The translations under genes and the position numbers were made by a program. DNA of 63,683 nucleotides, the filler included, from Chrysochromulina tobinii (taxonomy: Eukaryota): the NCBI GenBank assembly GCA_001275005.1. It is 5 parts of 5 records of this genome, joined end to end, with 100 filler letters (N's around TTAATTAATTAA, not from the genome) between each part and the next. Parts side by side here need not be neighbours in the genome. Positions count along the whole stretch, not along the records: positions 19,041 to 43,013 come from JWZX01001015.1; 4 more parts are not named here. One strand, given 5' to 3'. Below the pieces are notes generated by a model, which saw nothing but the letters and a program-made list of their open reading frames with translations, did not search any database and was not told the DNA's origin. Shown here piece after piece: positions 21,119-47,024 of the stretch (the stretch's first letter is position 1; each line of letters opens with the position of its first letter).

Positions 21119-24100
21119 ATGCGCCTGCTCGCACGACTACCTCAGCTCCATCTCTCGCTCAATCTCACGAGTGAGGAGCGTGACGAGGGTCGCCGCGAGC
21201 TCGAGCTCCTCTTCGGCTCGGAGACGCACGCTGACGATGAGGTCGAGCATGACGAGGTGGACGCCGCCGATCAGGGACGCGGCGAGGCTGATGGAGAAGA
21301 AAAGGACGCGCTCGACGAGGCTGAAGTGATGGAGCCCGTCGTTGATGGGATTGACTGCGACGGTGCCGACGTGCAAGAGACGATGGCTGCTCTTGCTGCT
21401 GCGGATGCGGCAGCGAGTGCTGCAGAGGCGGCCGCGCTGTCGGCCGCCGAGGTGGACGTGATCCAGCACACGTCCGACGCAGCCGAGGCCGCGGCGGCGG
21501 CGGCGGCGGAGCAGGAAATGGCAGCTGAGGAGGAGGCGCTGCTCCATCCCGATTGCGCCTTGCAGGCGGTCTGGGCGCGCGTGGACACTTCAGACGTGGA
21601 CGACTTTGCATCTCGCGTGCCTCGGCCGGCGATCACGTATCCGTTCGAGCTGGACGAGTTCCAAAAGCGAGCGGTGGTGCGGCTCGAGCAGAACGAGGAC
21701 GTGTTCGTGTGCGCGCACACCTCCGCCGGCAAGACGGTTGTCGCCGAGTACGCCGTCGCGCTTGCCCTCCGTCACAGGACGCGGGCGGTGTACACGTCGC
21801 CTGTGAAGGCCCTGTCGAACCAAAAGTTCAGAGAGCTGCGGCAGCGCTTCGGCGAGGCGGCGGTGGGGCTGCTCACGGGCGACGCCTCCATCCAGCCCCT
21901 GGCACCGTGCCTCATCGTCACGACGGAGATCCTACGAGGTATGATCCAGCGCCGCTCGGCGCTCATTGACGAGATCGAGTTCGTCATCTTTGATGAGGTG
22001 CACTACATCAACGACATCGAGCGCGGGGTGGTGTGGGAGGAGACGATCATCAGGTGATTGGCCCAAATCGGCGGCCTCTGATTCCATCCGGGGGCCTCTG
22101 ATTCCATATGCAGATGCACCCCGTCCCTTCCTTCACTATTTCTAATCGAGCCCTGATCGATCCCTAATTACACCCCTTCCTTCACTATCTCGAATCGAGC
22201 CCTGATCGATCCCTAATCGATCCCTAATGAGTCATTTCCGCCCCCCCCACTACTCGAATCCGCAGCCTGCCGCCTTCGTGCCGCGTCGTCTGCCTCTCTG
22301 CCACCGTCCCCAACCCTCTCGAATGTGCCTCGTGGATTGGGCTGACCAAGCAGCGCCTCGTACACGTCATCACCACGGAGAGGCGCCCGACGCCGCTACG
22401 TCACTGTGTGTACGCCGGTGGGCGGCTCTGGCAGCTCGTCGGCGAAGATCGATCCTTCGACCATGCGTGCTATGCCCAGGTACTCCTTGATTGCGCTTCA
22501 TTGCGATTGATTGCGCTTGATTGCGATCGATCCTTCGATCATGCGTGCTATGCCCAGGTACTCCTTGATTGCGCTTGATTGCGCTGATTGCGCTTGATTG
22601 AGATTGATTGCGCTGGATTGTGCTTGATTGCGCTTGATTGCGATCGATCCTTCGACCATGCGATGCCCAGGCGGCGAAGGCACACAAGCTCCATAGAGGC
22701 GACGGAGGAGGAGGCAAGGGCGGCGGCAAGGGCGGCGGCAAGGGCGGCGGCAGGGGCGGCGGCAGCGGCGGCGGCGGCGGCGAGGAGTATTGGGTGTCGC
22801 TGCTGAGTATGCTTCAGCGCGAGAATCTCTTACCGGCGGTGGTCTTCTCCTTCTCAAAGGCACGCTGCGATGAGATCGCGTTTGGGCTCGCTGGCCGACT
22901 CCATCAGCTGAGTAGCGTGGCCGAGAGCGCCGAGGTGGGCACCTTCTTCGACGCGTGCCTCGAGCGCATCCGGCCTGAGGAGCGCTCGCTTCCACAGCTG
23001 GTACGCCTTGGATGGCCTCGGATGGCCTCTGATGGCCTCTGCTTGCCATTGAATGGCTTCCGCATGGCTTGGGGCGGCAGGTGCGATCTCCCTTGATTGC
23101 GCTTGATTGAATGGCCTCCGCATGGCTTGGGGCGGCAGGTGCGATCTCCCTTGATTGCGCTTGATTGCGGCAGGTGCGAGCAAAGGAGCTGCTGCTGTGC
23201 GGCGTGGGTGTGCACCACTCGGGGATGCTGCCCCTCGTGCGCGAGATTGTCGAGATGCTCTTCTCGCGCAATCTCCTCAAGGTGCTCTTCGCCACGGAGA
23301 CGTTTGCGATCGGTGTGAACATGCCCGCGCGCTCCGTGATCTTCAACGGCGTGCGCAAGAACGATGGGCGCTCCTTCCGCGAGCTATGGGCTGGCGAGTA
23401 CGTCATTGGTTGCCCATTGATTTCGTCATTGATTGCCCATTGATTGCGTCATTGGTTGCAATCAGAGCTATGGGCTGGCGAGTACGTCATTGGTTGCGTC
23501 CTCTGATTGCGTCATTGATTGCAATCAGAGCTCTGGGCTGGCGAGTACGTCCTCTGATTGCCCATTGATTGCGTCATTGGTTGCAATCAGAGCTATGGGC
23601 TGGCGAGTACGTCATTGGTTGCCCATTGATTGCGTCATTGATTGCGTCATTGATTGCCTCTTGATTGCCTCTTGATTGCCTCTTGATTGCCGGTTGATGG
23701 GTTCGCTCTTCAGGTACACACAGATGAGCGGGCGGGCGGGCCGTCGCGGCATCGACGCCCACGGCATAGTGATCATTGCCGGGGATGAGCTGATCGATCC
23801 CTCCCGCCTCGAGGCGATCATTCTCGGGCAGCCTCCCAAATTAGTGTCGCAATTCGGGATGACCTACTCGATGCTCCTCAACCTGATCCGAAGCCCAGAT
23901 CGCACGAGCTACGCGCAGATGATCTCCCAGTCGTTCGCGTCGTATCGGGCGCGCACGGCCTCGGCGCAGCTGCACTCAGCACGCGCTCGCCTCGAGGCGC
24001 AGCTGGCGGCGCTGCCGCTGCCGACGCCGACGCCGCGCCGCGCGTTGCTTCGGGCAGCTGACGACGCGGAGATGGCGAGCTCGACAATCTCACGTGGAGC

Positions 24101-27100
24101 TGCCGACGCGGAGATGGCGAGCTCGACAATCTCACGCGGAGCTGCCGACGCCGATGCTGCTGTTGAGAGCGGTGGCGGAGGCACGGTGACCATTGAGCGC
24201 CAAGATGAGCGCGCGACCCTCGCCACGTATTATGATCTGCTCGAGGCCGCGACCAACACGGCGCTCGACCTGATCCGCGCCGCACGCAGCCTCCCCGGGG
24301 GGGGCCGGCGCCTTCTGCCGTCGGGTCGAGTGGTGGTTACACGGGATGTCGGGGACGCCCGGGACGGCGCCGTGGTACGGCCGCGCTTGGCATTGCTGCT
24401 GACGGCGATGACCGAAGACCTGCCGCCGCCGCCACCACATGCATCGCCCCAGACGCTACCGGTGCTAGGGGGGCCTCTGCCGCATGCCACGCGGGAGGAG
24501 GAGGAGGAGGCAGCGTCGCCGCCGGTGCCGCAGGTGCCGCCGCCGGAGCCTCCGTCGGTGCATGCAAGTGCTCACCACGGCGCTCCCCTCTCTCCCCCCC
24601 CACAGGTACCGCCGCGCGCCTCGTCTGCGCCGGCGTCGATGCCGGCGGCGCCCACAACGGCGGCTACCGGTACCGCGGACGCAGCAACCGAGGCCACCAA
24701 ACCCGCGGCTGCCGCCCGGCTGCGCTGCCTGATCGCGTCGCAGGAGAACGGCGCGTCGCCGCATCCCCTCGATGGGTTTGGAGTGGCGCCACGTGTCCAC
24801 GCGCGCCCGCCATGGCGCCCACCGACGCGCCTCGCGTGCGGCTCGGGCGCCGTGGTGGGCGCCATGATGGGCGGCGGCAATCAGGGCGCCATGGTGGGCG
24901 GCGGTTATGAGGGCGCGGATGGCAAGGACGGCGGCGCTGGAGGCGATGAAGGCGATGAAGGCGCCGTGGTGGGCGGGTGCGGCGGACGCATCGCCGGGCG
25001 CCGTGGTGGGCGCGGCGCTGGCCGCGGCGGGCGTGGCGGCCGCGGTGCCTCCGCTTGCACTGTTGTGCATCTCCCGGGTGCCTCCGCCGCCGCGGCCTCC
25101 TCCGCTCCGTCAATGACCTGGGAGATAGTGGAGATCGAGGCATCACACATCATCGCTCTGAGTACGCTGCGGCTCAACGTCCCTCAGTCCCTCGCGACCG
25201 CGACGGCGCTCGACCTCGCCAGTGTGGGCGCTGAGACGGGCGCTCACCATGGCGCCGCGCTGCTCAAGCTCGCTCAACAACTCTCTCTCCTCCAACGCAA
25301 GCATCGCTTCCTACCGGTGCCTCTCATCGACCCGATCGCCGACGTGCACTTCAGCGCCCAGCCCACCTCAGCTTGCGAAGTGACAGCCGCCGCCTCCGCC
25401 TCCGCCTCCGCCTCCGCCGCCGCCGCCGCCGCCGCCGCCGCCCCCGCCGAAAAAGGGCGGGGCGGTCGTAGCGGCCGTGGGCTGGGCGTCGTGGTGGGCG
25501 GCCGTGGGGGGCGCGGTGGCCGAGGGGTGAGCGTGACGGCGAAGGTGGCGATGGGCGCGACTGACGGAGCGGCCGGCGCCGAGGTGGGCGGCAGCAGCCG
25601 CGTCGGCGATGATGGCGCCGTGGTGGGCGAATCCGACGGCGGTGGCGCCGGGTATCCGTCGCCTCTGGCCGCGATGGTCGCCCGTCTCTCGCGTTCTCTT
25701 CAGGAGCATCGCTCCGCCCTCCAAGCCCACCCGTACAGCTCGCACGCCGAGATTGCAATCCTCATCAGCGCCGAGGCGCAGCGGCGAGCGCTGCTCGGCG
25801 AGATTGCGGAGATCGATCGGGTGAGATTGCGAGATTGCGAGATTGCGAGATTGCGAGATTGCGGAGATCGATCGGGTGTGCGCGGCCAAAGCCGTGCACC
25901 TGCCTTGCATGCATGTGCTCACCACGGCGCCGCCCCTTCCCCACAGGTGTGCGCGGCCAAGGCGGTGCACCTGCTGCCCGGGGCGGCGCGCCGGCTCGCT
26001 GTGCTTGAGCAGCTCGGCTACCTGCTACCTGCCGTCTCCGCAGACGAGTCCGCAGCCGAGTCCGCAGACGAGTCCGCAGACGAGGCTCCGGGCAGCAGGT
26101 TGTCGCTCAAGGGACGCGTGGCATGCGTCCTCACGACGACTGCCGACTCACTCATCTTGACGGAGGCGGTGTGTGATTGCCACTGATTGCCACTGATTCC
26201 CACTGATTGCCACTGACTGCCACTCCTCTTGAAGGAGGCGTGCTCACCACGGCGCCCGCTCGACCTCAGGTGTGTACGGGGCTGCTCCATCCTCTGAGCG
26301 TGCCCGAATGCTGCGCGCTCCTCTCGACCTTCGTGGCCAAAGGGAAGCTCAGGACGGCGCCCAAGCTGCCGCCGGCGCTCGTGGCCGCCCATGAGTCACT
26401 TCTGGTCCTCGCGCGCCGACTCGCTACCTTACAGGTGCAATCGCCGTTGATGGCCCGTTGGTGACCGCTAATTGCCCGATGATGACCGATGATGGCCGCT
26501 GATGACCTCTGATGACCTCTGATGACCTCTGATGACCTTCCTGATGACCTCGGATGACCGCAGATGACCTCTGATGGCCCTCTATGGCCGCTAATTGGCC
26601 GCTGATCGCCGCTGATCGCCGCTGATCGGCCACTGATGACGACTGATGGCGCCTTGTGACGTTTCAGGTCGAGGCGGGAGTGCTCGAGACGACGCCGGAC
26701 GAGCACGTGAGCGCGACGCTCAACACGGCGCTCATGGGTGCCGCGTTCCATTGGGCGAGCGGCGCGAGCTTCGAGGTGGCGTGCCAGCTCACGGATCGGA
26801 GCTGCATGCAAGTGCTCACTACGGCGCCTTCTCTCCCCACAGGTGGCGTGCCAGCACACAGATCTATCCGAGGGCGACGTGGTGCGCATCCTCTCGAGAA
26901 CCGAGGAGCTGTGCAAAGAGGTGTGCGCGCGGCGGCGCGGCGGCGCGGCGGCGGGCGGCGGGGCGGCTGCATGCGAGTGCTCACCACGGCGCCCTCCCCT
27001 CCACACAGGTGCGCGCGGCGGCGCGGCTGCTTGGCGACGCGCTGCTCGCCAAGAAGCTCGACGAGCTGCTCGCGGCCATCCGGCGCGATCTCGTGGCTGC

Positions 27101-27140
27101 CCCCAGCTTGTACACCACCGGCGGGATGGCGGGCTGGTGA
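21119..27140 (+). CDS. SKI2: Ski2/SKIV2L-like DExH-box RNA helicase, 11 exons; 5' end uncertain
   Basis: Motifs [71 protein letters not shown] and a DSHCT tail ([18 protein letters not shown]). Introns: 22054-22265, 22480-22670, 23001-23173, 23398-23713, 24534-24605, 25821-25946, 26169-26269, 26435-26667, 26776-26842, 26921-27008. Confidence 0.9.
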
Positions 27141-28090
27141 TAATAACTGACCACGCGCGCACGCCACCGGGGCAAGCAGAATGATACGAGACCGTAAAGC
27201 GCCGTGCGCCCGGTGGGGGTGCGGCACCGGTACAGCTGTCCGGCTCGGCTGTGTTGTGCATGTCGCGGCGCGTGCTGTACGCGTAAGTCGAGACCATTTA
27301 CCCGCACGAGTACCTCTACTATAATCGTATCGTATGTTATAGATGAATTTCAAGTTGATCCGTCGGACGAGTATCTATTACGTCATGCGTCACGGTCACT
27401 CGACTGGTGCGCGGAGTAAACAACCACGCGGCACACGCAGATCAGATGAGATGCGAACTCCGATCTCCGACGTGATCTCAGATCTGTTCGACGAAGGCGC
27501 GATCCGGTGCGACGCTGCACGCTCCAGCCACAGGCGAACGCCATGCACAGTCGACACAAGTCACAACACACATGGGTCATGCTCGTGGGCAATGAGTTCC
27601 CCATCCGTCGCCGCACACACCAAGACCAACAGAGACCATCCCCCGACCCCTCCCACACAAACTCAAACAGAGACTCCACAAACAAGGGCAGTCGCTGCAC
27701 CAGACACACTGGTTCACTCAAACCCGATTGGCCGGAGGACTCCCACGACATGGTCGGCCCATCCACGATCTCCCACAATCTCCCATAACGGCTCACGAGC
27801 CCGCACCCTTCTTGGCCTTGAGAGCGCGCCGACAATCTCCTTTGGTACTTGTAGTGCTTGACGCACTCCGCCCACCGGCGCGGCAGTCACTTAGGCGAAC
27901 GCAGGCACCGCTGATTGCCTCTGATTGCTCCGGCTCATTGACATAATTGCCGCCCGGAACCGGCATCGCGAGTGCTGTGTGGACTTACGACTTAGTGATA
28001 GTATGGAGTCTCGTGAGGCGTGAGCAATCTGGAAAAGGGCCTCTGCCAGAGGTGTACCGTGAACACGCGGTACGTTCCCAAAAGTCCCCT

Positions 28091-30419
28091 CTAAGACCCC
28101 TTTACCGTCGTGCCCGTGCCCCCACTCCGGGCCGGCGCCAAGGGCGCGCGCCCTCCCTCGCCGCTCGTCAGGAAGTCGACAAAAGCCTTGGCTCGGCGCT
28201 CGACGCTCGCGGCGGGCGGCAGGCCGTCCGCCGGCAGGAACGCGCCGCGCTCAGCGCTGTGCCACTCGGCGAACTCGAGATACGGCAGATCGTGATCTCC
28301 GCACGCCGTGATCTCGGCCTGCAGGAGATAGACGGAGATGAGCCCGACGGCGAAGGTGTAGCGGAGCCGGGGCTCACAAAAGTCGGTAGCGTTGAGAGAG
28401 AGGAGAGAGAGGGTGAGACGCTGGCGCCGAGGCGCGAGCTCGAGCTGCACGAGCACACGACCGAAGGCGCCGGGCAGCTGCACCTCCGCGCTCGCACTCG
28501 GGCCCTCCGCCTCCTCCTCGCCCTCGCCCTCGCTTTCGCCGCTGCCATCATGCTCGCTGCCCTCATCGTCGCCGTCGCCGTCGTCGCTGCCGACGTCCTC
28601 GCCCCCGTCGCCCAGCGCAGCTCGCACGAGCTCGCCCACGAGATCCAATCCCAGCTCATCGGCCTTGGCATGCACCCACTGCCGCATGCACGCGTCCGCG
28701 TTGTGGCCGCCGTGCAAATGGCGCGCCGCCTCCGCCGCCGCATCCACCGCGAGGAGCGACAGTACCCTCGACTGGCGGCGCACCCGGCGCGCTCTGCCGC
28801 CCGCGCGCCGCTCGTCGCCGAGTAGCTGCGCTAGCGAGGGCAGCGGCCGCAGCGTCGCCGCCAGTCCGTGTGCCGCCACGGCGCGCTCGAGCTGCTCGAC
28901 GAATGCCAGCTGCGAGGGGCTCAGCTGGGCGCTCAACACAACGTTCGACTGATCGCTCGCCGCGTCGGCGTCGTGCTGAGCGGCGGCGTGTTGAGCGTCG
29001 TCGTGTTGGGCGTCGTCGTGTTGAGCGGCGTCGTGTTGAGCGGCGTCGTGTTGAGTGGCGTCGTGTTGAGCGGCGTCGGCGTCGGCGCCATGGGCCCCCG
29101 CACTCCGTTCCAACGGTGTCAATGGCCCCAGCATTCCGCCATGGGCCCCCGCAGCATTCCGTTCCAGAAGGAATCGCAGCGGCAGCAGGCGCGCCGCCGC
29201 TGCAGCCGGTCTCGGATCCGACATGTCCAGCCGAGCCGCCCGAACAAAGGCCGCATGCGCGTCGCTCATCAAGCCGAGCGCCTCGAGTGCCCGCGCCGCG
29301 TCGCGGCGTGCGCTCGTTGCGCCGATGGCGCCGCCACCGCGCCCACCGGCCGAGACGGCAGCCGTCGGCGTCGGCGTTGGCGTCAACGGCGGCGTCGGCG
29401 GCGGCGGCGGCGGCGGCGGCGGTGGCGAGGTTGGCGTGACGAAGCGCCGAATGCATGCTCCGAAGCTTGCGCTGTGAAAGGGAGGCGGCGGTGTGAACGG
29501 CGGCGACGGTCGCAGTATCGGTACGCTTGGTGATCGCGCCGACGGCGTCGTAGTAGTGCGCGAGCGCCTGCGACCACTCACCACGGCGCGCGGCCGCATC
29601 GCCCTTTTTCATCGCCGCAGCCAGCACCTCGGCTGAATCGGGTCGGTGGACGGAGCCGCCGCACACTGGGCCGCAGATCGGGCAGTCCATCACTTGCCAG
29701 TCCCCTTGGCCGGAAGGACGCCACGCGACGCCCATCGGTGGCGCCGGCAGACCCGGAGATGCCGCGGGCGGCGCTGGTGTCCGTGGCGGCGGCGGCGGCG
29801 GAGGCGGCGCAGGCGGCGGATGCTCAGGCGCTGTATTGGGCGGATGCGCAGGCGCTGTATCGGGCGGATGCGCAGGCGCGGGCACGGCCTCCACGACTGC
29901 TTCTACCTGCTCGCCACTCTCGAGCACTCGGCCGGCGAGCTGGAGCTGCTCGCGCAGCCGCGGGATGGAGGTCTGCTGGCAGATACCGCAGCGCTCACTG
30001 CCCTCTGGGAGCGCGGCGCCGCAGGTGGCGCAAGGAATCGCGACCAGCGCTCCAAGCCGGATGATGCCTCCGGTGATCGTGCGCAGGCAAGGTCCGCCTG
30101 GACTGCACCCTCGTCGATCCGCTGGCCCTCCCGCCAGCACGCCGACGCGCATCGATAAGAGCTGCTCCACGGCTTGCGTGGAGTGCCCTGGCGCCGCAAA
30201 GGCCTGCGTCGCGTCGCCTCCTGCCACGGAGAGGATGAGCAGCGGGCCGCCGGGATGGCTCTCGAGGAACGACGTGACATCGTAGACGACGCCGCGAACA
30301 ATGATCCAGCAATCACTCGGCCGGCTGTGGGCTGCAACGTCCTTCTCCGAGTAAAAAGCCTCCGTCGTGGGCGGCACGAATCGTGGCGCACGGTCGCCAT
30401 TGTTCAGGGTGTCTCGCAT
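28091..30419 (-). CDS. Cytochrome b5-like heme-binding domain + Cys-pair (zinc-ribbon-like) motifs + TPR-like repeats + unknown C-terminal domain; one apparent frameshift
   Basis: DCWIIVRGVVYDVTSFLESHPGG..GGDATQAF..GHS. CATC..CGIC. TPR-like helices (KGDAAARRGEWSQALAHYYDAV; ARALEALGLMSDAHAAFVRAARLD) lie in two overlapping frames that switch around 29350-29425, a GCC-repeat region. Confidence 0.7.
28970..29080 (-). repeat. Coding 15-bp tandem repeat, (A/T)QHD(A/D) x ~7
   Basis: GCGTCGTGTTGAGCG units on the + strand. Confidence 0.85.
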
Positions 30420-30614
30420 TTTTCGAGAGACACCGCGATCGTCGTGAATGCTCGCCGCAGCGCTCTAATCTCTCTCTCATTGTTGTATTATGCGTATCAG
30501 AAGTACATTACGACGTCGGCATGCTACGGTCCGATTTTCGAATCATCCACCAAGCATCATCTCCAAGACGATTTTACCTAGTATGCGCAGGACGCAGAGA
30601 GGATCTATCCATGA

Positions 30615-31445
30615 TCAATAGTCCCAGACGGATTTCATAAAGCGCATCGCCCAGTTCTGGTAGCCCTCAAGGATGACGAACGCGACGAGGATGTAGCGCA
30701 CGCCGCCCGTGATCGGGTGCCCCCCGTGCAGCACGCCGCCCGCGTGCGCACACACATGGCCACGCTCGATGGGGAGTGAACGGCCGAGCCCCTCGAACCA
30801 AGTGCCGCCGCCCTCGTACTCGGAGCGCGCGTTGAGCGCGACGTTGAACGAGAGCACCGAACCGTCGCGGTGCTTCGACAGAAACGTCTGGCCGCCCGAC
30901 GCATTGTATTTGACAATGAAGGCGTCCGCGACTCGCAGCGCGCGCCAGTTGGGTAGGCTGCTCTCGAAGGCGTGGCCGAGCAAGGGGTAGATGCGGTTGG
31001 GCAGCGCGTCGGAGTTGAGAAACCAGCGCGTCAGTGGCAGCTCGGCGAGCGGGATGTCGGTCGTCGGGTGGTTGAAGTGCCGCTTCGACGTCCAGCCGCC
31101 CGCACGAGCGGCCCACTCCTCCGCCTCGCCGATGATGTATTCGCACTCCTGCGCACTGAGCAGCGGCTCGGCCGTCGTGTGCACGAGACCCACGCCGTCC
31201 GGCCCGGTCACGTGCGAGATCAGAGGAGTCCGGTGCAACGGCGCATCTCGCGGCAGCGGCTCAAAGAGCTTGATCGTCTCCTTGTACGCTTGGTTGTGCC
31301 GCTCAGAGATGGCAAAAGGAGTGCCGCAGCGACGGTGAGAGGCACCTGATGTGTAGGGGAGCTGAAGCGCTGCACGAGTCGGCGTACCCTGTAGCTGCAG
31401 CGCGTGGCCGAAGGCGGCCGAAAGGACGAGGAACTCCGTCCGCAT
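30615..31445 (-). CDS. Fe(II)/2-oxoglutarate dioxygenase (procollagen lysyl/prolyl hydroxylase-like) with an N-terminal signal peptide
   Basis: DAFIVKY, HRD (HxD), FNVALN, HGGHPITGGVRYILVAF. Hydrophobic N-terminus. Intronless. Confidence 0.88.
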   Translation of the reverse strand: MRTEFLVLSAAFGHALQLQGTPTRAALQLPYTSGASHRRCGTPFAISERHNQAYKETIKLFEPLPRDAPLHRTPLISHVTGPDGVGLVHTTAEPLLSAQECEYIIGEAEEWAARAGGWTSKRHFNHPTTDIPLAELPLTRWFLNSDALPNRIYPLLGHAFESSLPNWRALRVADAFIVKYNASGGQTFLSKHRDGSVLSFNVALNARSEYEGGGTWFEGLGRSLPIERGHVCAHAGGVLHGGHPITGGVRYILVAFVILEGYQNWAMRFMKSVWDY

Positions 31446-31923
31446 GAAATCTCCTCGCGATCGAGCTCAAAACCTTCTTTTCGTCACTTCGTCACTTTTG
31501 AGGATCCTTGACCACCAGCGCGCGTGCACCCCCGCCAGATACCGTCCACACACACTCACTCACATTTGCACATGCCATCGCTCGTTCGATCCAACCATCG
31601 CTCCTTTGTGCTTCATGCACCCTGCTGCTCTCGTCGTGAGACCTCCACAGGGTGCGTCGAGTACTAGTCGCGCCAGCGAGCGCTGCTTCCCCCCTGGCTT
31701 CCCCCCAGGCTCCCCCCCGCGCCCCCAATCCTCCACCAGCGCACCGTCGGTGGACGACGTATTCCGCCCCCCCCCCCTCATCGTGAAATTCAGAGGGTAC
31801 TTCCCCTCCCTTCCAGTCGTGGAATTCCAGCACGCGCTTCGAGATCGATCGGTCCGGCGCCGAGTGAACGCCTGACCTCAAGCGATGACCTCAAGTGCAC
31901 CGTTGTCGTCCTGTCCCGAGTCC

Positions 31924-32164
31924 CTATTCGTCCATCTCGGCCGAGAGGCTCTTTCCAGTCCACTTGGACAGCCCGTGGACCGCCGCACCCGCCTCCGATT
32001 GACGAACCGCACCCGCCTCCGATTGACGAACCGCACCCGCCTCCGATTGACGAACCGCACCCGCCTCCGATTGACGAACCGCACCCGCGTCCGATTGACG
32101 AACCGCCGACGCCCCGTCGGCCCCATCGGAGCCGTCGACCCCTTCTGCCACCGCCGCCGCCGCA

Positions 32165-32204
<40 letters not shown>

Positions 32205-35200
32205 AGCCGTCAAGCACGCGCCGTACTGGGCGCGCCCCGTCCAACGCCGTGCCAGCACGACGCGCTGCATCGGGCCGAGGGTCCGCGTCCTTCCCCCTCG
32301 CCTGTGCCGCCGCGCATGAGGCGGCCTCCACAGCGGCCACACCGCCTCCCCGCCCATCCGCGTACGCCTCCGCATCATCCTGCAGCTCGGAGGCGGCCTC
32401 GAGAGCGGCCGTGAGCCGAAGATTCTCGGCGCGGAGCTCAGCGAGCTCGGCGAGCATTCCGTCCATCTGCCGTCGGAGATTGCAATCATAGTGCAATCAG
32501 AGTGCAATCATAGCGCATAGCGCAATCATAGTGCAATCAGAGGGCAATCATAGGGCAATGAGAGTGCAATGAGAGTGCAATCAGAGTGCAATCAGAGTGC
32601 AATCGAAGTGAAATCAGAGTGAAATCAGAGGCTATCAGAGCGCAATCAGAGGGCAATGAGAGCGGTGATCAAGTGCAATCAGAGGCCATCAGAGGCAATC
32701 ACGGGTCGTCAGAGGCATTCGGGTGCAATCAAGGGGCACTTTGGTGCAATCATGCGCAATCATGCGCAATCATGCGCTATCAGGGGCACTCACCTGCCCA
32801 GCCATCTGACTCGAAGCAAGCTGCACGGCCTGTCGCGCCGTCTCGAGCACGCTCGTCTTCTCGTCCGCCGCCTTCGCCTCGGCCTCCCCGATCGCTTGTG
32901 CCACTGCCGCTTGCTGCTGCGCCTTGGCACGCACTGCCGACTCCCGCAGCAGCTCCTTGATCTGAACCTGCGGAGATCGCGGTGGCAGCCCGAAGCCATC
33001 ACAGGCGCCAACACAGGTGCCATCAGTGGCAATCACAGGCGTCATCAGCGCGGCCAACTTCGATCTGCACCTGTCGCTCCGCCGCCGCCTTCTCTGATGA
33101 GGGAGGCCATCAGCATGCAATCACAGGCCCCATCAGCATGCAATCAGCTGCACCTGTTGCTCCGCCGCCGCCTTCTCTGATGAGGGAGGCCATCAGCATG
33201 CAATCACAGGCCCCATCAGCATGCAATCAGCTGCACCTGTTGCTCCGCCGCCGCCTTCTCTGATGAGGGAGGCCATCAGCATGCAATCACAGGCCCCATC
33301 AGCATGCAATCAGCTGCACCTGTTGCTCCGCCGCGGCCTTCTCGTACGCCTCGTGCACCATCTTCAGGCGCGAGTCAGCGCGCTCCTCGGCGTCACGTAC
33401 CGCCCGACGCGTGGCTTCCTAATATGGTAACATTTGACCAATGGCAAATGGGGTCACGACACTCAGCCGTCATCTTCCGTCATCAGTCGTCATCAGCGGC
33501 CATCATTTGCAATCCCTTTATCGCACCTGGACGGCCTTAGGCTGCTCCGCAATCTCCATCGCGAGCTCTCCAATCCGCACTTGCACCTGCGACGAGATGG
33601 CTCTTCAGGGCTCGTCATCGCTCCTCAGTGCTCATCAGGGCTCATCAGGGCTCGTCAGGCGACTCCCCAATCTGCGATCGCACCTGCGACGCCAGCTGCC
33701 TCATCAGAGGACACTCGGAGCTCATCAGGGCTCATCAGTCGCAATCAGGCCCGCACCTGCGACGCCAGCTGCCGCTCGCGATCCCGAGCGCGCTCCTCCG
33801 CCTCCCGAATCGCAATCTCAACCGCCTGCTGACGCTGCAGCTGTGGCTTGATCAGGGCGAGAGCCTCCGCCTTCGCTTCCTCTCGAAGCCGGGCGGCTTC
33901 CTCGCGCTGGGCCGCCTCGATTGAAGCCCGCACCTGCGCCACTCAGGGGCACTCAGAAGTCATCCAGTTTCATCAGACGCAATCAGGTCCGCACCTGCGC
34001 CACTCGTGGGGCACTCAGAGGTCATCAGGGAAGCGATCAGAGAGAAGCGATCAGAGGCGATCAGGGAAGCGATCAGAGAGGCAATCGGAGAGGCGATTAG
34101 AGAGGCGATCACACACCTTGGCCTCCGCTTCCCGCACGGCCGCCTGTGTCTGCGCCACATGCCGTTGGGTCGCCGCTTCGAGCGCGGCCGCCACCATCGC
34201 CGCAACCGACTGCTCCTCGGCCCTCTTGCGACGCTCGAGCGCCTCTTGCACGGCCTCGTGCACCGCCTGCTTCTGCTGCAGCTTGTGACGCAGCTCCGCC
34301 TGATCGAGCGCACGGCGCAGCTGCGCGGCCGCCATCGCCTCCACCGAGCGAGCGTGCCCTGCTGACTGCTCGAGTACGGCTGTCACCGCCACCTTGCTCA
34401 CCTCGGCCCCCCGCCGGCGCTCCTCCGCTGCTAGGGCGAGCTTCACGGCCTCGGATCGCTCGATCGCGGCGCGCGCGCGCTCGGCCTCGAGCGCCTCCCG
34501 CACCTCCTGGCGCGCGAGGTTGACGGCATGGATCCTCTCCTCACGTCTCGCGTCCTCCCGAGCGGCCTCGAGCATCGCCCGCGCTGATGCACTCGCCATC
34601 GCCTCGGCCTGCGCGCTCGACTCGGCGCGCACCGCCGCGACGCGCTTGTTCGCCTCGGCCTGGAGCCTCTCACTCTGCATCCGCAGGGCCTCCCGAGATG
34701 CAATCTCGAGACGAGATCGCTCGGCGGCGAGCAGCTCGTCGATGTGGGACTGCGTCGCCTGGCGCTGCATTGGCACCGCACGCGCGATGGCCTCGCGAGC
34801 GGCGAGCTTCGACTCTTCCTTGATGAGGCCTGATGGTGTGGCACTCCAGTCAGGTTGGACTCGCAATCAAAGGCAATCAAAGGTGGCCATCAAAGGGGTC
34901 ATCACAGAGTTCCTCCTCAGGCGAGCTCGCCTATGGACTGCTCAAGCTTCTCGTATTCCGACTTGGAGTGCGCGGCGGCGGCGACGGCGGCGGCGAGCTC
35001 GGCTGCGACCTCACCACGTGCCTCGTCGAGCGCGCGCTGATGCGCGGCGGCGAGCATCGCTCGATCCGCGGAGCGCGTGATCGCAGCCTTGCCCTTCTCA
35101 AACGCCTCCTGTGCTGCCCGTCGCACCTCGTGCTGCATCGTAGCTTCGTATCTGCTGTGAGCCTCCTCGAGTGCCAGCCGCACTCCTTCATTCACCGCCG

Positions 35201-38200
35201 CGCGCTGCTCATCTTCCCTTAGCGAGCGGACCTGCGGAGGGATACGGAGCGAGGCAGGCTGAGGGGCATGCATGCAGGGGCTGCGAGCATGCGAGGGGAA
35301 TGCATGCAAGGGGCTTCGAGCATGCGAGGGGAATGCATGCAAGGGATATGGAGGGATATGGAGGCAGGCAGGCAGGCGCACTCAGGCGCACTCAGGCGCA
35401 CTCAGGCACACTCAAGCACACTCAAGCGCACTCAAGCGCACTCAAGTGCACTCAGACGCGCTCAGAGGGCGAGCATCTCCCGCTGCGAGCGTACGTGCTC
35501 CACGGCCTCGTCAACGGCTTTCGCCTGGCGGCGCTCCGCCTCAGCCGCCGCGTCGTGCAACACGTTCGCAAGCGACTGGTCGTAACGCTGCTGGTGCGAC
35601 AACGCCGCTGCCTGGCGCTCTGCCTCGACGTTGGCCATCCATTCCGCGCGTGCGGACGCTAACTCGTCCTGGTGCAGCGTGGCGAAGGCGGTGGCGATCT
35701 GACTGGTGGCCCATGCGAGGTGTTGGTGCCATGTGCGCGCACCTACCATCCCAAGGGGCCATCAGAGGTCATCAGAGGCCATCAGAGGCATTGCGAGGGC
35801 AATAGTAGAGCTCATCAGAGGTCATCAGAGGTCATCAGAGGCATTGCGAGGGCAATAGTAGAGCTCATCAGAGCCACTCAAAAGCAATGCGAGAGGGCAT
35901 CGGGCGATTGTGTCAGGCTCACGACGCTCACGCGACGCACGCGCACCGTCACCCGACGCCACAGTGGACTCAAAGGCCGCAGATGCATCCACACCGCCTG
36001 ACGCCGAGACCATCGCACGCACGACTGCACCGACCGCGTTCACAATGGAGCGAGTGGCATAGGCGTCTCGTGGCGAGTCGAGTCCGATGACGCGAATGGA
36101 ATCAGGAAGGTCGAGGTCGACGGCGGTGCCAGCAGCCTCCATGGGCACGGTAGCGGCGACGCCGTCTTGGGCGAGGCCGTCCTGTCCATCGGAGGGCACC
36201 AGCCTTCGCTCGCTGAGTGCTTTCCGATCGAACTGGATCCGTGCCCAGTGGATGGCCTCCTTGATGACCGTCTGCAGGGCGCGGCGCAGTATGACAGCAC
36301 GCGCCGCCTCGGGCAGCCTATGCAGCCCTATCGCCCGCGCCGACTGTACCGCCCTCTCGACTGCCCCGGACAGGCCCTGCTCGTCCTCTCCGAAGGCGCC
36401 CGTGAGGCTGAGCAGGCTTGCCTGATGAGGGAGGCAATTAGGGTCATTAGAGGCCATCAGAGGCTATTAGGGTCATTAGAGGCTGAGCAAGCTTGCCAGC
36501 TTCGCAGGATGCAGCTGGAGCAGCGCCGTCGTGGGCGCACGTGACGGGCCTGTGGCGGCTAGGGCCGAGTTCCCCACAGCCGAGTTCCCCACAGCTAGGG
36601 CCGAGTTCCCCACATCCTGTGCAGAGTCGGATGGCTTTCCTAATTTGGTGCTGAGCTCTGCGGCCGCACGGGCAGCGACGCTGCCACCACCCTTGCCGCT
36701 CGTGCTGGGCGTCGTGATGGGCGGCTGAGCCGCCCTCGACGTTACGCTCGACGTTACACTCGACGAGGCGACGGGACCGTCCGACGCGCCCACGTCCACT
36801 CCTTCGGCTTGGTCGTCGAGCCAGACGCCCTCGAAGCTCTCACAACGCGCGTCGATGGCGTGCGCCTCGGCGAGCGCAGCGCTTGCGAGCTCGGCGGCCA
36901 TCGCCACCTCCGCCCCGAGGACGACCTGGGACGTCTCATTGAACGAGTCGCCTTCGAAGAGATTCTGGAGCGCCGCGCTCTTGGCGCGCTTCACCTGCCA
37001 TACGAGCGCATCCGTGGTGAATATAAGGGCAATCACCTGCCATACGAGCTCATACGAGCTCATCTCTCATCACATCTAATCAAACGAGCTCATCCGCGGT
37101 GATTAGAGGTGCAATCGGAGGGCCCGCAGTGAGGGTCGAATGGAAGGGCAATCACGCAGTGAGGGTCGATTGGCATTGGCGAGGCGAGGGCGAGGGGCTT
37201 GCCTGCATCTGCTGCTCGTGGGTCGCGAGGGCGGCCTCCCTACGCACGGCCGCAAGGTCAATTGAGCGGAGGGCCTCGCACTGCAGCCACGCCTCTGCCA
37301 CCGTTGAGCGCTGCCGCTGCAGTGCGCGCGTCTCCGTAGCCTCGAGCGCCCTCGTGAGCACGCGCTCGAGCCGCAGCGAGTGCGGCTGCAGCGCCTCGAC
37401 GAGTTTGAAGTCCCGATTCGAGGCGAGTGGGCAGCTCGAGCGCCGTCGTGGGCAGGGTGAGCGCCGTCGTGGGCGTCGAGAGCGCCGTTGTGGGCCGTTC
37501 GCTCTTGGCGCCCGACCCGCCTGCACGCGGGCGGAGGGCGCCCTCACCCTGGCCGCCGCCGCTCCCCTCGCTGCCCTCGCCGTCCTCGCCGCCGTCGATG
37601 CGGGCCTGCCTATTTAGGGCCTGCCGGAGAGACGCGAGGAGACCTTGCTCGATGGCATGGCGCACGGCGACGTCCCTCTCGTGCCCCTCCGCCGCCAAGC
37701 TCGTCGTGTGCCCTACCATGGGCGCGGCGGCCACCAGCTCTCGCCGAGCTTGCCGCAGATGCTGCTGAAGCATCGTGTCCACATCCGCTTCGATTTCGTC
37801 AAGCGCTGTGGCGCACGCACTGGCCAGTCGCTTCTCAAGCACTCCGAGGAACTGCTTGTTCACCTGCATACAATGAGGGAGGCAACAAGGGAGCTCATCA
37901 GAGGCCATCAGAAGCCAGACGCTTCTCAAGCACCCCGAGGAACTGCTTGTTCACCTGCAGGCGGGAGGCTTAGGGGTGGCCTTGGCGTGCATGCATGCAG
38001 GCGAGAGGCTTAGGGGTGGCCTTGGCATGCATGCATGCATGCGGGAGGCTTAGGGGTGGCCTTGGCGTGCATGCATGCAAAAATGGGCTGCGGGTGGCCT
38101 TGGGAGGCATGCATGCATGCGGCAGGTCCGCGCATGCAAGGTGCATGCAAGGGGCCGCTGGCATCTGAGGGGCATGCATGCAAGGGGCTGCGAGCATGCG

Positions 38201-39306
38201 AGGGGCATGCATGCAAAATGGACTGCGAGCGCACCTGTGCTTTGGCCGCCTCGATCTTCTTCATGGTGTTGGTATGAAAGTCGGCTGCAGCCGCCACGCT
38301 CGACACGATGGAGGAGGCTTCGGCGGCGGCATCGACGCCGCCCTCGCCCTCGCTGCTGCGTCCAGCGCCACTCTCGCCGCGACCTATGTCGCTGACGCGT
38401 ATCGTCGAGAGGACCTCATCGAGGGCGGTGTTCTCTGCAGCCTTGACCTGAGGCGATGGAGGAGGGATTGTGCACGCGTCTTGTGCAGCTCAACGGCCAT
38501 CAGAGGTCATCAGAGGCCACCAGAGGCCGCCAGAGGTCACCAGAGGCCATCAGAGGCCATCAGAGGCCAATCAGAGGCCAATCAGAGGCCATCAGGGGAG
38601 TGGCGCCCACCTCCTCTTGCAGCTCGAACCGCACAGTTCCCACCCGCTTCTCCGCGCGTTCGTATAAGGAGCGCTGAGCGTGTGCGCCGCACTGCTCGAT
38701 GGCCTGGGTGATGATTCGCGCGGCCGTGTGCTCGTACGCGAGCGCCGCGCTCTCTGCCTTGCGCACGCGCTGCATCGCGTGCTCGTGCTGCACGCGCTCT
38801 GCATGGGCCGCACTGTCGCGCGCCGTCCGCTCTGCCGCCTCCCGCTGTGCCCTCTCGGCCTCCTTCTCGGCCTGTGCAGCGAGGACCTTGGAGGGGACCT
38901 TGAGCGACTCGGAGCAGTCGGCGGGGAGCTCGGGCAGGAGCGTGCGCAGCGGCGCCGTCTCCGGCCCGAGCGCGCCCCAGAACTGGCCGGTGTTGCAGCA
39001 GCGCGCGCGGAAGGCGTAGGCGGCTCCCGCGGCGAGGCCACCCTTGGTGCAGCGCGAGTTTTTGAGCGTGCTCGAGGCGACCTCCCACGGCGAGTCTTGC
39101 GACGGCCCGATCCTCTCGCCGGGCTCAGCCACGAGCCGCCACTGCAGCTCGAAGCATGCGACCTGCAGTGGTGTCGGCTGCGCGCCGGAGCGCAGCTTGG
39201 GCGCCGCGCCGAGGCTGAAGTCGAGCGTGATCGAATTGGGGCTGGCACGCACGAAGGTGATGATCACCGGAGGTATGGTGCTCGACTCGGATGATGCCAG
39301 CGCCAT
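31924..39306 (-). CDS. Fibronectin type III domain + very long coiled-coil protein, 13 exons, ~1,600 aa
   Basis: FN3 pattern SITLDF..FELQW..W..GLAAGAAYAFRAR. Phase-consistent exons: 39306-38611, 38447-38235, 37863-37203 (extra base near 37430), 36994-36497, 36421-35947, 35742-35495, 35231-34931, 34829-34117, 33933-33757, 33586-33527, 33418-33320, 32967-32794, 32466-31924. Confidence 0.75.
31981..32107 (-). repeat. Coding 24-bp tandem repeat, GAVRQSEA x5
   Basis: CCGCACCCGCCTCCGATTGACGAA units on the + strand. Confidence 0.9.
33071..33319 (-). repeat. Intronic 83-bp tandem repeat x3; each unit is a complete GT..AG module
   Basis: Units 33319-33237, 33236-33154 and 33153-33071 are near-identical. 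Confidence 0.92.
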
Positions 39307-39528
39307 CGTGCCTACGAGTGACTCGTGCTGCACACAGCAAAATTTGTGAGGCGGGCGTTCGACGGTTACGGCTGCAGGTTACGGCATGCAATCCATCACA
39401 ATATCCAGCGACTGGTCATGCGTCAGCCGTTTGAGTCACAGCTCGGGGGAAAAGCCAAAACCCTCTTCACAGCACATTTTGTGTGAGGAAAGCGCTCTCG
39501 GCTGAAGTCAAAGGATTTGGACGGTTCA

Positions 39529-41798
39529 ATGCCGTGGTTGTGGGGCCGAAAAGAGTCGGCGGAGGCCGCGGAGGAGCGGAGGCGACGAAAAGAGGAACAT
39601 GACAAGGAGCTCGCTCAATACTGGGCGACTGTCAACGCTAGCCGTGGCGCGAGCCCAGCGCCGAAGGCAGCAGCAGCAGATCACACGCAAGGATCTTCCG
39701 AACAAAGTGAAGTCGACCTGGCGTTGCTCGCGGCGCGCACTCGAGTTGAATTGGCGCGCAACGCACTCGAGTGCCAGGAATCTTACATCAAGAATGGCCT
39801 GAAGTCGACGATCGGGTGGAGTAGAATCTGGCAGCTTTCCGGAGAACACCCAGGGCGTGTGAATGGGAAGGAGTTGCGGCTTGGCGAGCTCGAGCGAGCG
39901 CTTCGCGCGGCGCAGGCAGAGGAGGCTGAGCTCCAGCGCCTCGCGGACTCCGGAGAGACGATGCTGCCGGCATCGGCCATCGCCAAAGACATCAGCCGCA
40001 CGCCGGAGGCTTGGCGTCCATGGCACCAGCACGTGCCAGCCGGTGGGCTAGCCGTGTCGTCAAGGCGTCCCACCCAAGGCGGCGTGGAGGTGAGGCGCCG
40101 ATTGGCCGTGCAGGACGCCCCGGCGCGAGACTCACCCAAAGCAGGCGCCGGCCCTTGGACGCTCCTCGAGATGTACTCGTATCTTCAGAGCGAGAATCTC
40201 AAGCTGCGCAGCCAGGTAGGCTTGCTGGAGGCGGTGGCTCTGCATGCAAGTGCTCACCACGGCGCCCTCGCCCCTCTCCCCTCTCCCCACAGGTAGGCAT
40301 GCTGGAGGCCGAGGTCGTGGCATTGAAGGCACAGCGACAGGCGTTCAAGGAGCAGCTGCTCGGAGCACGCGCCGGCGGCGCAGCCGTCGCGACAAGCATT
40401 GACGAGCCAAACTCACAGGCAGGCAGTCCCGCCCCCGCGACCTCTGTCACGCAGGCATTCGCGGGCGTCGGGGCTTTCTGTAGAGCACCGCCGCCGAAAC
40501 AGCAGCGTCCGCGTCGGAAGAACCGCCACGTCAGCGAGGGAGGCGGCGAGGGCGGCGGCGAGGGCGGCGACGAGGGCGGCGGAATGGAGCATCCCAAGCG
40601 GCCAGGTCCGTCAGTTCCGTCAGTTCCGTCAGAGGAGCATCGCAAGCGGCCAGTAGTCGTGTGCGGCCCCAGCGGCGTTGGCAAGGGCACCCTGATCGGC
40701 CGGCTGCTCAACGACCATCCCGACCAATTTGGCTTCTCTGTGAGCCATACGACGCGCGCGCCTCGACCGGGGGAGCAGCATGGCGTGCACTACTACTTTG
40801 TGGAGCCGGCGGAGATGGAGGCGATGATTGCGAGGGGCGAGTTCGTTGAGTACGCGCGTGTACACAGCCACGTCTACGGCACCTCCCACGCTGGCGTGCG
40901 GGCCGTCTCCGATGCCGGCAAGACGTGCGTGCTCGATATCGACGTGCAGGGCGCGACACTGGTCAAGAAGACGAGCCTGGACGCGCTCTTCATCTTCATC
41001 GCGCCGCCCTCCATGAGCGAGCTCGAGAAGCGCCTTCGTGGGCGCAGCACCGAGACCGACGAGCAGATCAGCCTGCGGCTCGGGGCCGCCCAAAAGGAGA
41101 TGGCATCTCTCGAGCTCTCGGGCTTTTATGATGCGGTGATCATCAACGACGATCTTGAAGGTGCGTACGCTAGGCTCAAGGAGGTCGTCCTTGGCGCGGC
41201 TACTGCGAGGGCTCATCCCGCCGCCACCGCCCCTGCGACGTGTTGGGCTCCATCGCCGTGTTGGGCGCCAGCGCCACCCGCCGCATCGCCCGCTGCCGCC
41301 GCCACCGCCGCTGCACCCTCCCAAGTACTGCAGCGGAAGCACAAGCATCGCCATCGCAAGACCCCCGAGCGCGTGGCTGTGGACGACGAGGAGAGGTTCA
41401 TAGCGCGTATGGACCTCCGCGAGGCAGGCGAGGCGACACTGACGAAGCCGCCGGCGCCCACGCCGGCGCCAGCACAAGCGTCGGCGGGCTCAGCTGGCAA
41501 CGCCGCCGCCCTGGCAGCCGCAACGGGCCCGGCGCCGCAGCCTAAGGTCGCCCACACGCCCGAGCCGCCGCCGCCGTCGCCGCCGCCGCCGGCGGCAGCA
41601 GTGGCCCGTGCTAAGCTCTACAGCTCGGCCTCCACAAACTGGGGCCCGCAAATGAAGGTCAGTGCTGGCGAGGTGGAGGCGATCAACGCGCGCATTCGGT
41701 CCAAAAGCATGGCCAAGGGGCTGGTTGCCAAGGGGCTCTCGCCAGCGGCTCATCATCAGAACATCCTACGGGGTGCAGCTGCAACTGTTGAAGCATAG
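39529..41798 (+). CDS. Guanylate kinase domain protein with a long coiled-coil N-terminus and low-complexity C-terminus, 2 exons
   Basis: Exons 39529-40215 and 40293-41798. VVVCGPSGVGKGTL, SVSHTTRAPRPGE..GVHYYF, YGTS, LDIDVQG, FIAPPS..LEKRLRGR (~40650-41180). Confidence 0.88.
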
Positions 41799-43113: not shown

Positions 43114-43419
43114 TTGGGCCGCTCTGGCTGGGTATAGGCGGCGCGGCACGGCAGACTCAGGCCGCGAGCCCGCCGGTCCGCGTCTTCGCCACCCGCCGCA
43201 TGCTGCATGCTGCGCGCGCGCGCGCGCGCTCTCTTGCTCTGGCGCGCTCGCGGCGGCGCGACGCGCACCAGAGCGGCCCCTTCACTCCCGCCTCTCGGCG
43301 GCGCCCTCAATGAGCCATCACTTGGCGATCGTAGGGCGTTTATGGGCGCACGTCGCCACGACGGCGCGGGAAATTGCTGGTGCTCGCCTGCGCCTTTCGC
43401 GGCGAACATTTCGGACGTG

Positions 43420-46990: not shown

Positions 46991-47024
46991 GAGCGACAGC
47001 CTGCGCCGCCAAAGCAGGCAAAAG

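Follow-up and report, generated by a model that had tools for sequence, protein, structure and literature searches.

How did six introns in two genes of the alga Chrysochromulina tobinii come to share one 3' end, and by what route does such an end reach new places? The window, by which we mean the whole 63,683-nt stretch of DNA analysed here, comes from a haptophyte near C. parva, a Chrysochromulina-type alga; excerpts of the C. tobin genome paper hold a single mention of introns (PMC4580454). A sequence-only reading had described the shared end as a cassette that always stops at the acceptor, is usually preceded by a copy of the downstream exon start, and represents a minimal non-autonomous introner family able to turn any exonic GT into a donor.

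Cassette introns in the window

Five full copies and one partial copy of the cassette lie in six introns of two genes, as had been read from the sequence (Table 1). A 23-mer of the cassette matched five times in the window with 0-1 mismatch (24560, 25907, 26804, 26969 and 40242, all on the + strand) and never in 100 shuffles of the window; a 3'-part copy is found at 26240. The five cassette introns of the Ski2-like gene are spliced, as RNA contigs skip stretches of 72, 126, 101, 67 and 88 nt at GT..AG, and excision of all 10 RNA-defined introns leaves one open frame of 1480 aa. For the guanylate-kinase gene the intron is inferred from the reading frame: excising 40216-40292 joins the upstream ORF to the kinase domain, and no RNA joint for it is among the 15 joints listed (28 further joints are unlisted). 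RNA depth over the cassettes and 10-mer arrays is a sum over genome-wide repeats and is no measure of expression. One RNA run, matching at 82% (X21), gave short scattered pieces only and no usable joint.

Table 1. Host genes and cassette-bearing introns in the window
Feature	Position	Strand	Evidence
Host gene 1, Ski2-like RNA helicase, 10 introns, 1480 aa	21119..27140	+	RNA joints, open frame, Pfam DEAD + DSHCT, homologs
72-nt cassette intron: ~10-nt exon copy, 16-nt head common to L111, core 24560-24583, pyrimidine tail, CAG	24534..24605	+	RNA skip in 2/4 runs
126-nt compound intron, cassette at 3' end	25821..25946	+	RNA skip in 3/4 runs
5' part of the 126-nt intron: 8-mer array and copy of upstream exon end	within 25821..25946		
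Inner unit of the 126-nt intron: 28-nt exon copy (2 mismatches), CTT, core 25907-25930, tail	25876..25946		
101-nt intron: 10-mer array, upstream exon-end copy (26222-26240), 3' part of core (26240-26255), tail, CAG	26169..26269	+	RNA skip in 4/4 runs
67-nt cassette intron: 22-nt exon copy (2 mismatches), 6-nt head, core 26804-26827, tail, CAG	26776..26842	+	RNA skip in 4/4 runs
88-nt cassette intron: ~20-nt exon copy grown into 8-mer array, core 26969-26992, tail, CAG	26921..27008	+	RNA skip in 4/4 runs
Host gene 2, protein with guanylate-kinase domain	39529..41798	+	Pfam PF00625, reading frame
77-nt cassette intron (inferred): 17-nt exon copy (1 mismatch), 9-nt head, core 40242-40265, tail, CAG	40216..40292	+	Restores ORF

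All six window copies terminate in YAG, and the core holds a CTCAC motif, which we take to be branch-like, 20-35 nt from the AG. The preceding exon copy is less uniform than had been read. The intron at 24534, thought to be a simple duplication plus cassette, instead has a mere ~10-nt copy followed by a 16-nt head common to the unlinked locus L111, and the partial cassette of the 101-nt intron is preceded by 26222-26240, which copies the end of the upstream exon (26150-26168). An Rfam search over 21000-42000 at E<=1, relevant to a tRNA- or other small-RNA-derived head, gave no match on any cassette, with no full-length master copy known. Three sub-threshold snoRNA matches all fell on 10-mer arrays and none on a cassette. 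Secondary structure of the cassettes was nothing beyond that of shuffles (fold z-scores -0.05 to +2.05). Introns of Emiliania may hold 10-11-nt repeats, for which our literature search gave no support.

Abundance, footprint and target sites

A metagenome scan returned at least 159 distinct cassette contexts among at least 175 matches, so that the motif is abundant, and recapture puts the number of copies per genome at roughly 780-800; the introns of this kind probably number about a thousand. A single match in viral contigs, with the cassette at the end of a phage-like contig (L138), is read as a chimeric join, a second search pattern gave no match in viral contigs, and one match in prokaryote genomes, inside a bacterial gene, is chance. 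The core is 24 nt long and its conservation starts sharply, at 96% or more at positions 0-5 vs 53% at -1, with the 5' hexamer missing in just 12 of 238 copies; the copy search was anchored on the core, so that copies without a core are undercounted, and conservation of the core beyond neutrality is not separable from search bias.

Among the matches listed, 120 of 155 copies end at an acceptor YAG, so the rule that the cassette always does so holds in the window and not genome-wide. The tie to duplications stands: 81 of these 120 acceptor copies (again among the matches listed) sit behind an 11-50-nt target duplication, against 11/1500 in the null, while 39 show no clear ungapped duplication. 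Duplication lengths spread continuously from 11 to 50 nt, 30 of the 81 are perfect, and the duplicated copies together differ by 97 mismatches in 2105 nt. The locus-specific duplication makes up about a third to half of a cassette intron; only the 3' 40-60 nt is common to these introns, the 5' part is locus-specific, and similarity does not extend over the whole intron. Within loci, 224 cassette pairs lie on the same strand and 5 on opposite strands. The best frame on the cassette strand is stop-free at only 58 of 74 spliced junctions, against 281 of 300 correct strand calls in controls; among the 35 non-acceptor copies, strand calls are too noisy to bear on an orientation bias.

Both ends of the insert are variable. 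Heads range from 0 to 46 nt, and the 3' end may coincide with the end of the core or with the AG, or fall within the donor exon. Six clusters of unlinked loci share foreign 5' heads, which reach ~28 nt. Where the duplication abuts the core, microhomology is present on the 5' side in 5/7 cases and on the 3' side in 6/6 (null 34%), and tail-less copies, which stop at the end of the core, likewise show microhomology. Tail-less inserts outside evident introns have a length divisible by 3 in 9/12 cases (hand tally; p=0.004). Duplication ends match the consensus head weakly (34/80 vs 196/640 in the background).

The target sites are not any GT. Of 72 target GTs, 76% have G at -1, 94% a purine at +3 and 67% G at +5, where the background GTs reach 26%, 56% and 30%, respectively. 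Targets thus resemble proto-splice sites, and the proposal that any exonic GT may serve as donor is not supported because these GTs are so strongly donor-like. The G at -1 that makes up the 3'-junction match may equally reflect selection for a good donor, so that the two are confounded.

Filled and empty alleles

At L130, an 81-nt insert (a 33-nt perfect duplication plus 48 nt) is missing from L017/L061 on flanks of 96-97% identity, and 53 nt of it, both junctions included, are identical to the next intron of the same gene. This is the one filled/empty difference in three overlapping locus pairs between culture-type and other assemblies, and its polarity is unrooted: a long duplication allows precise loss too. 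The close ortholog P0004 is continuous, lacking the cassette, at all four alignable cassette sites, the fifth site not being alignable. One site is polymorphic and four positions lack the cassette in a close ortholog; the cassette was not seen to sit mostly in old position-conserved introns.

A donor can be traced in a second case. L088 and L100 share 59 identical nt, the longest such stretch among 3933 core-identical pairs from different loci, consisting of a 6-nt microhomology, the cassette, 7 nt of the L088 exon and another 6-nt microhomology. The L100 insert lies inside a 23-nt duplication whose first bases are not GT, and it carries the 7 nt of donor exon past the AG; this read-through case is one contig pair.

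Copying is partly local. Near-identical cassettes (distance <=4) make up 9/102 pairs within contigs vs 67/11833 between contigs, and none of 10000 permutations reached 9; 118 kb of flank held 15 extra exact cassette copies vs ~1.6 expected. The nearest relative lies on the same contig for only 22 of 95 introns. Independent assemblies contain the same loci at 99-100%. The same footprint marks a second intron-end module (10/40 vs 5/585 in the null), and long duplications flank cassette-less introns as well.

Origin and spread of the cassette

The introner reading is borne out in function: the cassette is multi-copy, protein-free and intron-making, it brings 3' splice signals, and its donor comes from the duplicated exon start. 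What is not supported is a cassette with fixed ends, given that either end is variable and bears microhomology and that some copies are tail-less. We favour, with modest confidence, the view that the cassette is the 3' end of a spliced intron, set behind an 11-50-nt target duplication, and that it spreads by microhomology-guided templated copying from an existing intron, in genomic DNA or unspliced pre-mRNA, and not by cut-and-paste. A 3' end at the target would anneal, through 1-9 nt, to the stretch of the donor intron that directly precedes the 24-nt core, and synthesis would copy 40-60 nt (head, core, tail and AG), at times halting at the core end or entering the donor exon. The strand would then rejoin the target 11-50 nt upstream at another microhomology, thereby duplicating that stretch. 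Because every donor reads CAG|GT..., return points would favour donor-like (A)G|GT, so that the first copy would supply the 5' splice site and the mRNA would be restored exactly; selection would retain exact introns and in-frame tail-less inserts.

The footprint fits such copying, filtered by splicing, better than it fits a MITE, even though the cassette works like an introner. No terminal inverted repeats were found in the cassette alignment or folds, and the duplications run to 11-50 nt instead of the 3-9 nt of a short fixed-length TSD. Against template copying stand the 39 acceptor copies with no clear ungapped duplication, the stop-free frame at only 58 of 74 junctions and the low share of introns (22 of 95) whose nearest relative is on their own contig. 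In addition, the sharp, near-invariant core boundary resembles a protein-recognised end, and distant copying demands a trans route that is not obvious from local repair.

These last two features also speak for a possible, if less probable, alternative, in which a non-autonomous element moves through an element-encoded enzyme acting in trans and recognising the 24-nt core. The enzyme would be either a Replitron-like HUH transposase, working by copy-and-paste with a fuzzy end and a variable TSD, or a non-LTR reverse transcriptase that primes on pre-mRNA. A non-LTR footprint consists of variable 5' truncation, microhomology and a variable TSD. Truncation with microhomology and variable TSDs are indeed seen here, as in SINEs, and copies do occur at a distance. 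Variable TSDs with a donor-derived fuzzy end, a Replitron-type trait, are seen as well, at both ends. According to PMC10288648, Replitron-1 inserts in a specific orientation, its TSDs vary and its fuzzy ends derive from the donor; one C. tobinii locus yielded a putative Replitron protein. Against mobilisation in trans, the cassette alignment and folds show no terminal direct repeat or subterminal hairpin, there is no fixed end on either side and no poly(A) or simple-repeat tail (the 3' end is variable, usually YAG), and the insert is a mere 40-60 nt. A different intron end bears the same footprint, clustering is strongly local, and no coding element was noticed beside any copy in loci of only 0.3-3 kb; nor did these loci yield an autonomous partner.

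It is improbable that intron RNA, as excised lariat or in debranched form and with the AG at its 3' end, was reverse-transcribed or reverse-spliced into new sites. The exact YAG ends, the excess of same-strand pairs and a local spread compatible with nascent RNA would suit this route, but L100 holds donor exon past the AG and tail-less copies end at the core with microhomology. Reverse splicing, moreover, moves a whole intron seamlessly and yields no duplication, a footprint not seen here, where the locus-specific 5' half of the donor is not shared. Still less credible are ordinary tandem exon duplications turned introns, in which the shared motif arose separately as a selected splicing signal. 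Cassette-less introns with long duplications and the branch-like CTCAC of the core speak for them, but a 24-nt word with matching heads and tails cannot recur by point mutation, and the L130 insert, which appears in full and matches its neighbour exactly against a background of otherwise 97% identity, refutes them unless that pair reflects loss or assembly error. An assembly artefact, with duplication induced around a common repeat, is the least plausible of all, for although all evidence comes from short-read contigs and one chimeric contig (L138) ends in a cassette, RNA contigs skip the stretches exactly at GT..AG, the duplicate copies carry mismatches and the loci recur in independent assemblies.

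The copying route likely differs from that of described transposon-type introners. Introners of Symbiodinium and of Polarella glacialis (classes 4/5 and 6/8/10) supply their own 3' splice site and recruit the 5' one from the TSD (bioRxiv 10.1101/2020.10.14.339549; PMC9860276), and the cassette is like them in being multi-copy and non-coding, bringing the acceptor, drawing its donor from the first bases of the target duplication and restoring the mRNA exactly. They have fixed 3-9-nt TSDs, defined ends and often TIRs, whereas the cassette has a variable 11-50-nt duplication, fuzzy microhomology ends, no TIR and partly local copying, a distinction drawn from the descriptions. Introners of marine Chrysochromulina MAGs share the genus and the lack of a TIR, but their TSD is 4 bp and they bring the 5' site while borrowing the 3' one, a polarity opposite to that of the cassette (PMC9860276); among the matches listed in the supplement of that paper, C. 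tobinii CCMP291 appears twice, both times in the Table 1 list of genomes, and the cassette motif word not at all. Replitron-1/N1 of Chlamydomonas reinhardtii resembles the cassette in copy-and-paste movement, variable TSD, donor-flank-derived fuzzy end and orientation-specific dinucleotide target, yet is 0.9-3.6 kb long, is fixed at one end and carries 6-bp terminal direct repeats as well as a hairpin, terminal features that the cassette lacks, and is not reported as intron-forming in the excerpts (PMC10288648). Tandem genomic duplication, double-strand-break repair with filler DNA and intron transposition appear as routes of intron gain in PMC3296678, and direct repeats at intron borders with inserted DNA between them are a shared feature; those routes are described as separate and sporadic, whereas a single event here brings both duplication and filler, the filler being one heritable intron end that has served hundreds of times. 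Sequence-similar introns at new coding-strand positions are also known from fungal introner-like elements and Hypoxylaceae sister (stw)introns, with a repair-linked route proposed, but there the whole intron is copied seamlessly, with no TSD and with long inverted repeats (excerpts of PMC8469720). Full-text literature searches, covering few subscription papers, found no account of the cassette family or of introners with 11-50-nt variable duplications.

The origin of new spliceosomal introns is a long-standing question, and the mass gains described mostly involve either seamless copies or DNA transposons whose TSDs are 3-9 nt long. In this culturable alga with its small genome, hundreds of introns still record how they were born: the self-copy is long, the donor can be traced, and both filled and empty alleles occur, so that donor, polarity and enzyme are testable by strain comparison and mutation accumulation. 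More tentatively, we propose that an intron 3' end may act as a replicator without a transposase: host microhomology-mediated template switching would copy it into new sites, duplicate 11-50 nt of target, home to proto-splice sites and regenerate the CAG|GT junction, making each new intron a new donor. A second module with the same footprint makes the process wider than one family. Such a self-reinforcing loop may run in at least two competing intron-end lineages and may sustain an ongoing genome-wide intron gain missed by whole-intron similarity screens. If true, this would unite tandem duplication, repair filler and intron transposition in a single repeatable process, explain the proto-splice-site bias mechanically, and suggest that introner surveys undercount families with a locus-specific 5' half.

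The cassette in the window and across the genome

Consistent with the positions first claimed for it, the 24-nt core of the cassette (a shared intron 3' end: head, core, pyrimidine tail and AG) is present at five sites with 0-1 mismatch each, and the partial cassette corresponds to the 3' part of the core; no core match arose in 100 shuffles of the window sequence. The window consists of contigs joined by N spacers, and every one of the six copies falls within the part that runs from 19041 to 43013. Contigs from four RNA runs show ten GT..AG skips in the Ski2 helicase gene, all five of its cassette introns among them, and taking the ten introns out leaves a single open Ski2-like frame of 1480 aa. 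The intron at 40216-40292, which is absent from the 15 best of 43 RNA joints, is a predicted sixth cassette intron, excision of which would fuse an upstream ORF with the guanylate-kinase domain. The core also appears in 53-nt and 60-nt tandem units of RNA contigs (depth 43-93), a possible source transcript, and the 53-nt unit and the guanylate-kinase intron have a 9-nt head in common. Four times in a low-complexity Ski2 exon (GAVV peptides), an 11-mer matches the 3' half of the core in reverse complement, which may reflect either chance or old antisense inserts.

A metagenome scan with the exact pattern (21 fixed bases; at least 137 stretches) returned at least 175 core matches in at least 138 loci, one of them viral, and at least 159 distinct contexts. 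Seven recurring pairs (5 independent contig pairs) among the 105 matches listed from near-identical culture-type assemblies imply ~780 exact-pattern copies per genome, uncertain 2-3-fold, in line with the family proposed in the sequence-only reading. As controls, 596 Gb of prokaryote genomes gave one chance match and viral contigs one match, at the end of the phage-like viral-collection contig L138, which finishes in algal intron sequence (2900-3060) and was rejected as a chimeric assembly. A transporter encoded in the window has haptophyte proteins as its closest named relatives and shares its 90% cluster with a Chrysochromulina parva protein; the host is taken to belong to the C. parva/tobinii group. 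The C. tobinii genome is given as 59 Mb with 63.4% GC in its report (PMC4580454), and window GC is 64%.

Anatomy was scored on 155 distinct copies, each taken with flanks of 150 nt; the window contributed 5 of them. That the cassette always ends at an acceptor proved too strong: a tail and YAG follow within 10-38 nt in 120 copies, while the other 35 include many that form tandem units within introns or whose tails are atypical. CCCCACAG ends 87 of the 120 acceptor copies; of the same 120, 99 have GT after the YAG and 8 have GC. The described duplication of the downstream exon start was recovered upstream in 81/120 (null 11/1500), spanning 11-50 nt, with 30 perfect repeats and 97 mismatches over 2105 nt; in these 81 the donor lies 14-61 nt from the core (23-50 nt in 78) and introns measure 55-100 nt (mod 3, 30/28/23). 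Across 236 copies with ≤4 mismatches, the core is invariant above 90% save at positions 6 and 7, and the base just before it (position -1) is T in only 53%. Within loci, 224 cassette pairs share a strand and 5 are opposed; the cassettes showed neither TIR nor stable fold.

Recent activity, donors and targets

Three locus overlaps between culture-type and other assemblies allowed filled and empty sites to be compared, and one proved to be a filled/empty pair. In that pair the metagenome locus L130 carries 81 extra nt (a 33-nt perfect duplication plus 48 nt) relative to L017 and L061 (96-97% identity), L072 and L123 have their cassette intron in common, and an intron present once in L079 occurs as two tandem copies in L034. 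The refuting possibility that cassettes sit mostly in old position-conserved introns was not borne out at the sites compared: P0004, a close Ski2 ortholog (66% and 52% identical), has a continuous 1217-aa ORF across the four alignable cassette sites, on contigs of up to 8.2 kb that are not specified as DNA. Ski2 intron 1, which lacks a cassette, interrupts the same position in P0005.

Over 53 nt, the insert in L130 is identical to the intron that comes next in its gene (~460 nt off), and these 53 nt take in target bases (2 nt left, 4 nt right). Among 155 introns left after tandem and orthologous copies were collapsed, near-identical cassettes made up 9/102 pairs within contigs vs 67/11833 between them, and none of 10000 permutations reached 9; the nearest relative was on the same contig for only 22/95 cassette introns. 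The flanks (118 kb) hold 15 extra exact copies vs ~1.6 expected from a rough genome estimate. Copying takes place between distant loci as well: foreign heads of up to ~28 nt common to unlinked loci form six clusters, one linking the window intron at 24534 with L111 and another reaching into the genome's 10-mer intron arrays.

After 7 of the 81 duplication copies were dropped (non-GT/GC starts, tandem or orthologous repeats), 72 GT targets were scored against background: G at -1 in 76% vs 26%, A at -2 in 43% vs 22%, purine at +3 in 94% vs 56% and G at +5 in 67% vs 30%. Targets are therefore donor-like, contradicting the idea that any exonic GT becomes a donor.

Where duplication abuts core, microhomology was found on the 5' side in 5/7 cases (1-9 nt) and on the 3' side in 6/6 (1-6 nt; ≥3 nt in 4/6, null 4.7%). 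The longest identity among 3933 core-identical pairs, 59 nt, joins L088 and L100, one contig each. At L088 both flanks belong to its own exon, presumably myosin-like as named from its peptide. At L100 both are foreign: the stretch sits inside a 23-nt duplication without a GT start, with 6-nt microhomology at each joint, and the copied sequence continues beyond the AG into 7 nt of the donor's exon. A DNA or pre-mRNA template that includes the 3' splice site fits this pattern, whereas an excised lariat does not.

How copies may arise, and other intron ends

We are highly confident that the family exists and creates introns. As to how, we lean towards microhomology-guided templated insertion, whereby an intron 3' end would be copied into a new site, the target duplicated in the course of insertion and the outcomes filtered by splicing; copying would be self-reinforcing because donors read CAG/GT. 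If splice-incompetent outcomes persist mostly when in frame, tail-less insert lengths should be divisible by 3, as they are in 9 of the 12 such inserts with duplication among the 35 non-acceptor copies (hand tally, p=0.004). The main rival, held to be less likely, is that an element-encoded HUH or RT enzyme recognising the core mobilises the cassette. Replitron-1, in the portion of its description consulted, offers variable TSDs, donor-derived fuzzy ends and a putative C. tobinii homolog (PMC10288648). Repair alone gives no account of the core's sharp 5' edge. A splicing signal may lie there instead: the hexamer at that edge, TGCATG, is the RBFOX motif in animals.

At L007, L013, L058, L103, L106 and L122, tail-less core inserts are 48-69 nt long, always a multiple of 3, and any that lie in exons would lengthen the protein by a short peptide. 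At L076:1000 and L004:1000, a G ahead of the head creates AG/GT directly before the core, so the donor may come from the insert itself and the acceptor from the duplication. Whole cassette introns or core units are tandemly amplified 2-5x at L034, L059, L077, L088, L100 and L119, probably by slippage between duplicated copies.

Cassette loci often contain another intron end, GATTGCCTCCCTCATCAG before GT, which has an exon-start duplication in 10/40 (null 5/585). A core-blind census gave 171 candidates flanked by duplications: the exact pattern is present in 75 and a core with ≤5 mismatches in 24, many have 10-mer-array ends, and some rows are reverse-strand echoes. Tandem arrays of 8-12 nt (TGATTGC, TGATGAC and TGATGGC types) fill several window introns, several of which also duplicate the upstream exon end. 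Other probable intron ends carry TGCATGCA in tandem units whose branch-like words differ, so the hexamer may be a signal common to several intron ends.

Cassette-related and other repeat features
Feature	Position	Strand
Core	24560, 25907, 26804, 26969, 40242	
Partial cassette	26240	
Core in RNA tandem units	40233-40265, 24558	
Ski2-exon 11-mers	24847, 24961, 24998, 25615	+
GATTGCCTCCCTCATCAG/GT module, after 10-11-mer arrays	L004, L005, L043, L069, L076, L078, others; window 36439, 33111-33277	- (window sites)
Array-filled introns	22480-22670, 23001-23173, 23398-23713, 25821-25875, 26169-26239, 26435-26667	sense
TGCATGCA units	35261-35345, 37956-38216	-
Large satellites (145-nt, 169-nt, 64/133-nt units)	43400-47900, 59048-59558	

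Relation to described introners

Full-text literature searches found no description of this cassette family. C. tobinii is in the genome list of the introner survey, with no match in the other supplement sheets searched (PMC9860276); a whole-intron similarity screen would plausibly miss introns with a unique 5' half. Haptophytes go unmentioned in the main text of the 2025 survey (PMC12130899), and the 2024 review, in the portion consulted, has no long-duplication introner type (PMC11282704). The cassette works like the acceptor-carrying introners of Symbiodinium and Polarella. The introners already described from Chrysochromulina have TSDs of 4 bp and are of opposite polarity (PMC9860276). It also fails all three MITE hallmarks (TIR, fixed 3-9-nt TSD, defined ends), and of the proposed "minimal non-autonomous introner family" what stands is a cassette family that is real, active and introner-like, with a footprint unlike that of described families.
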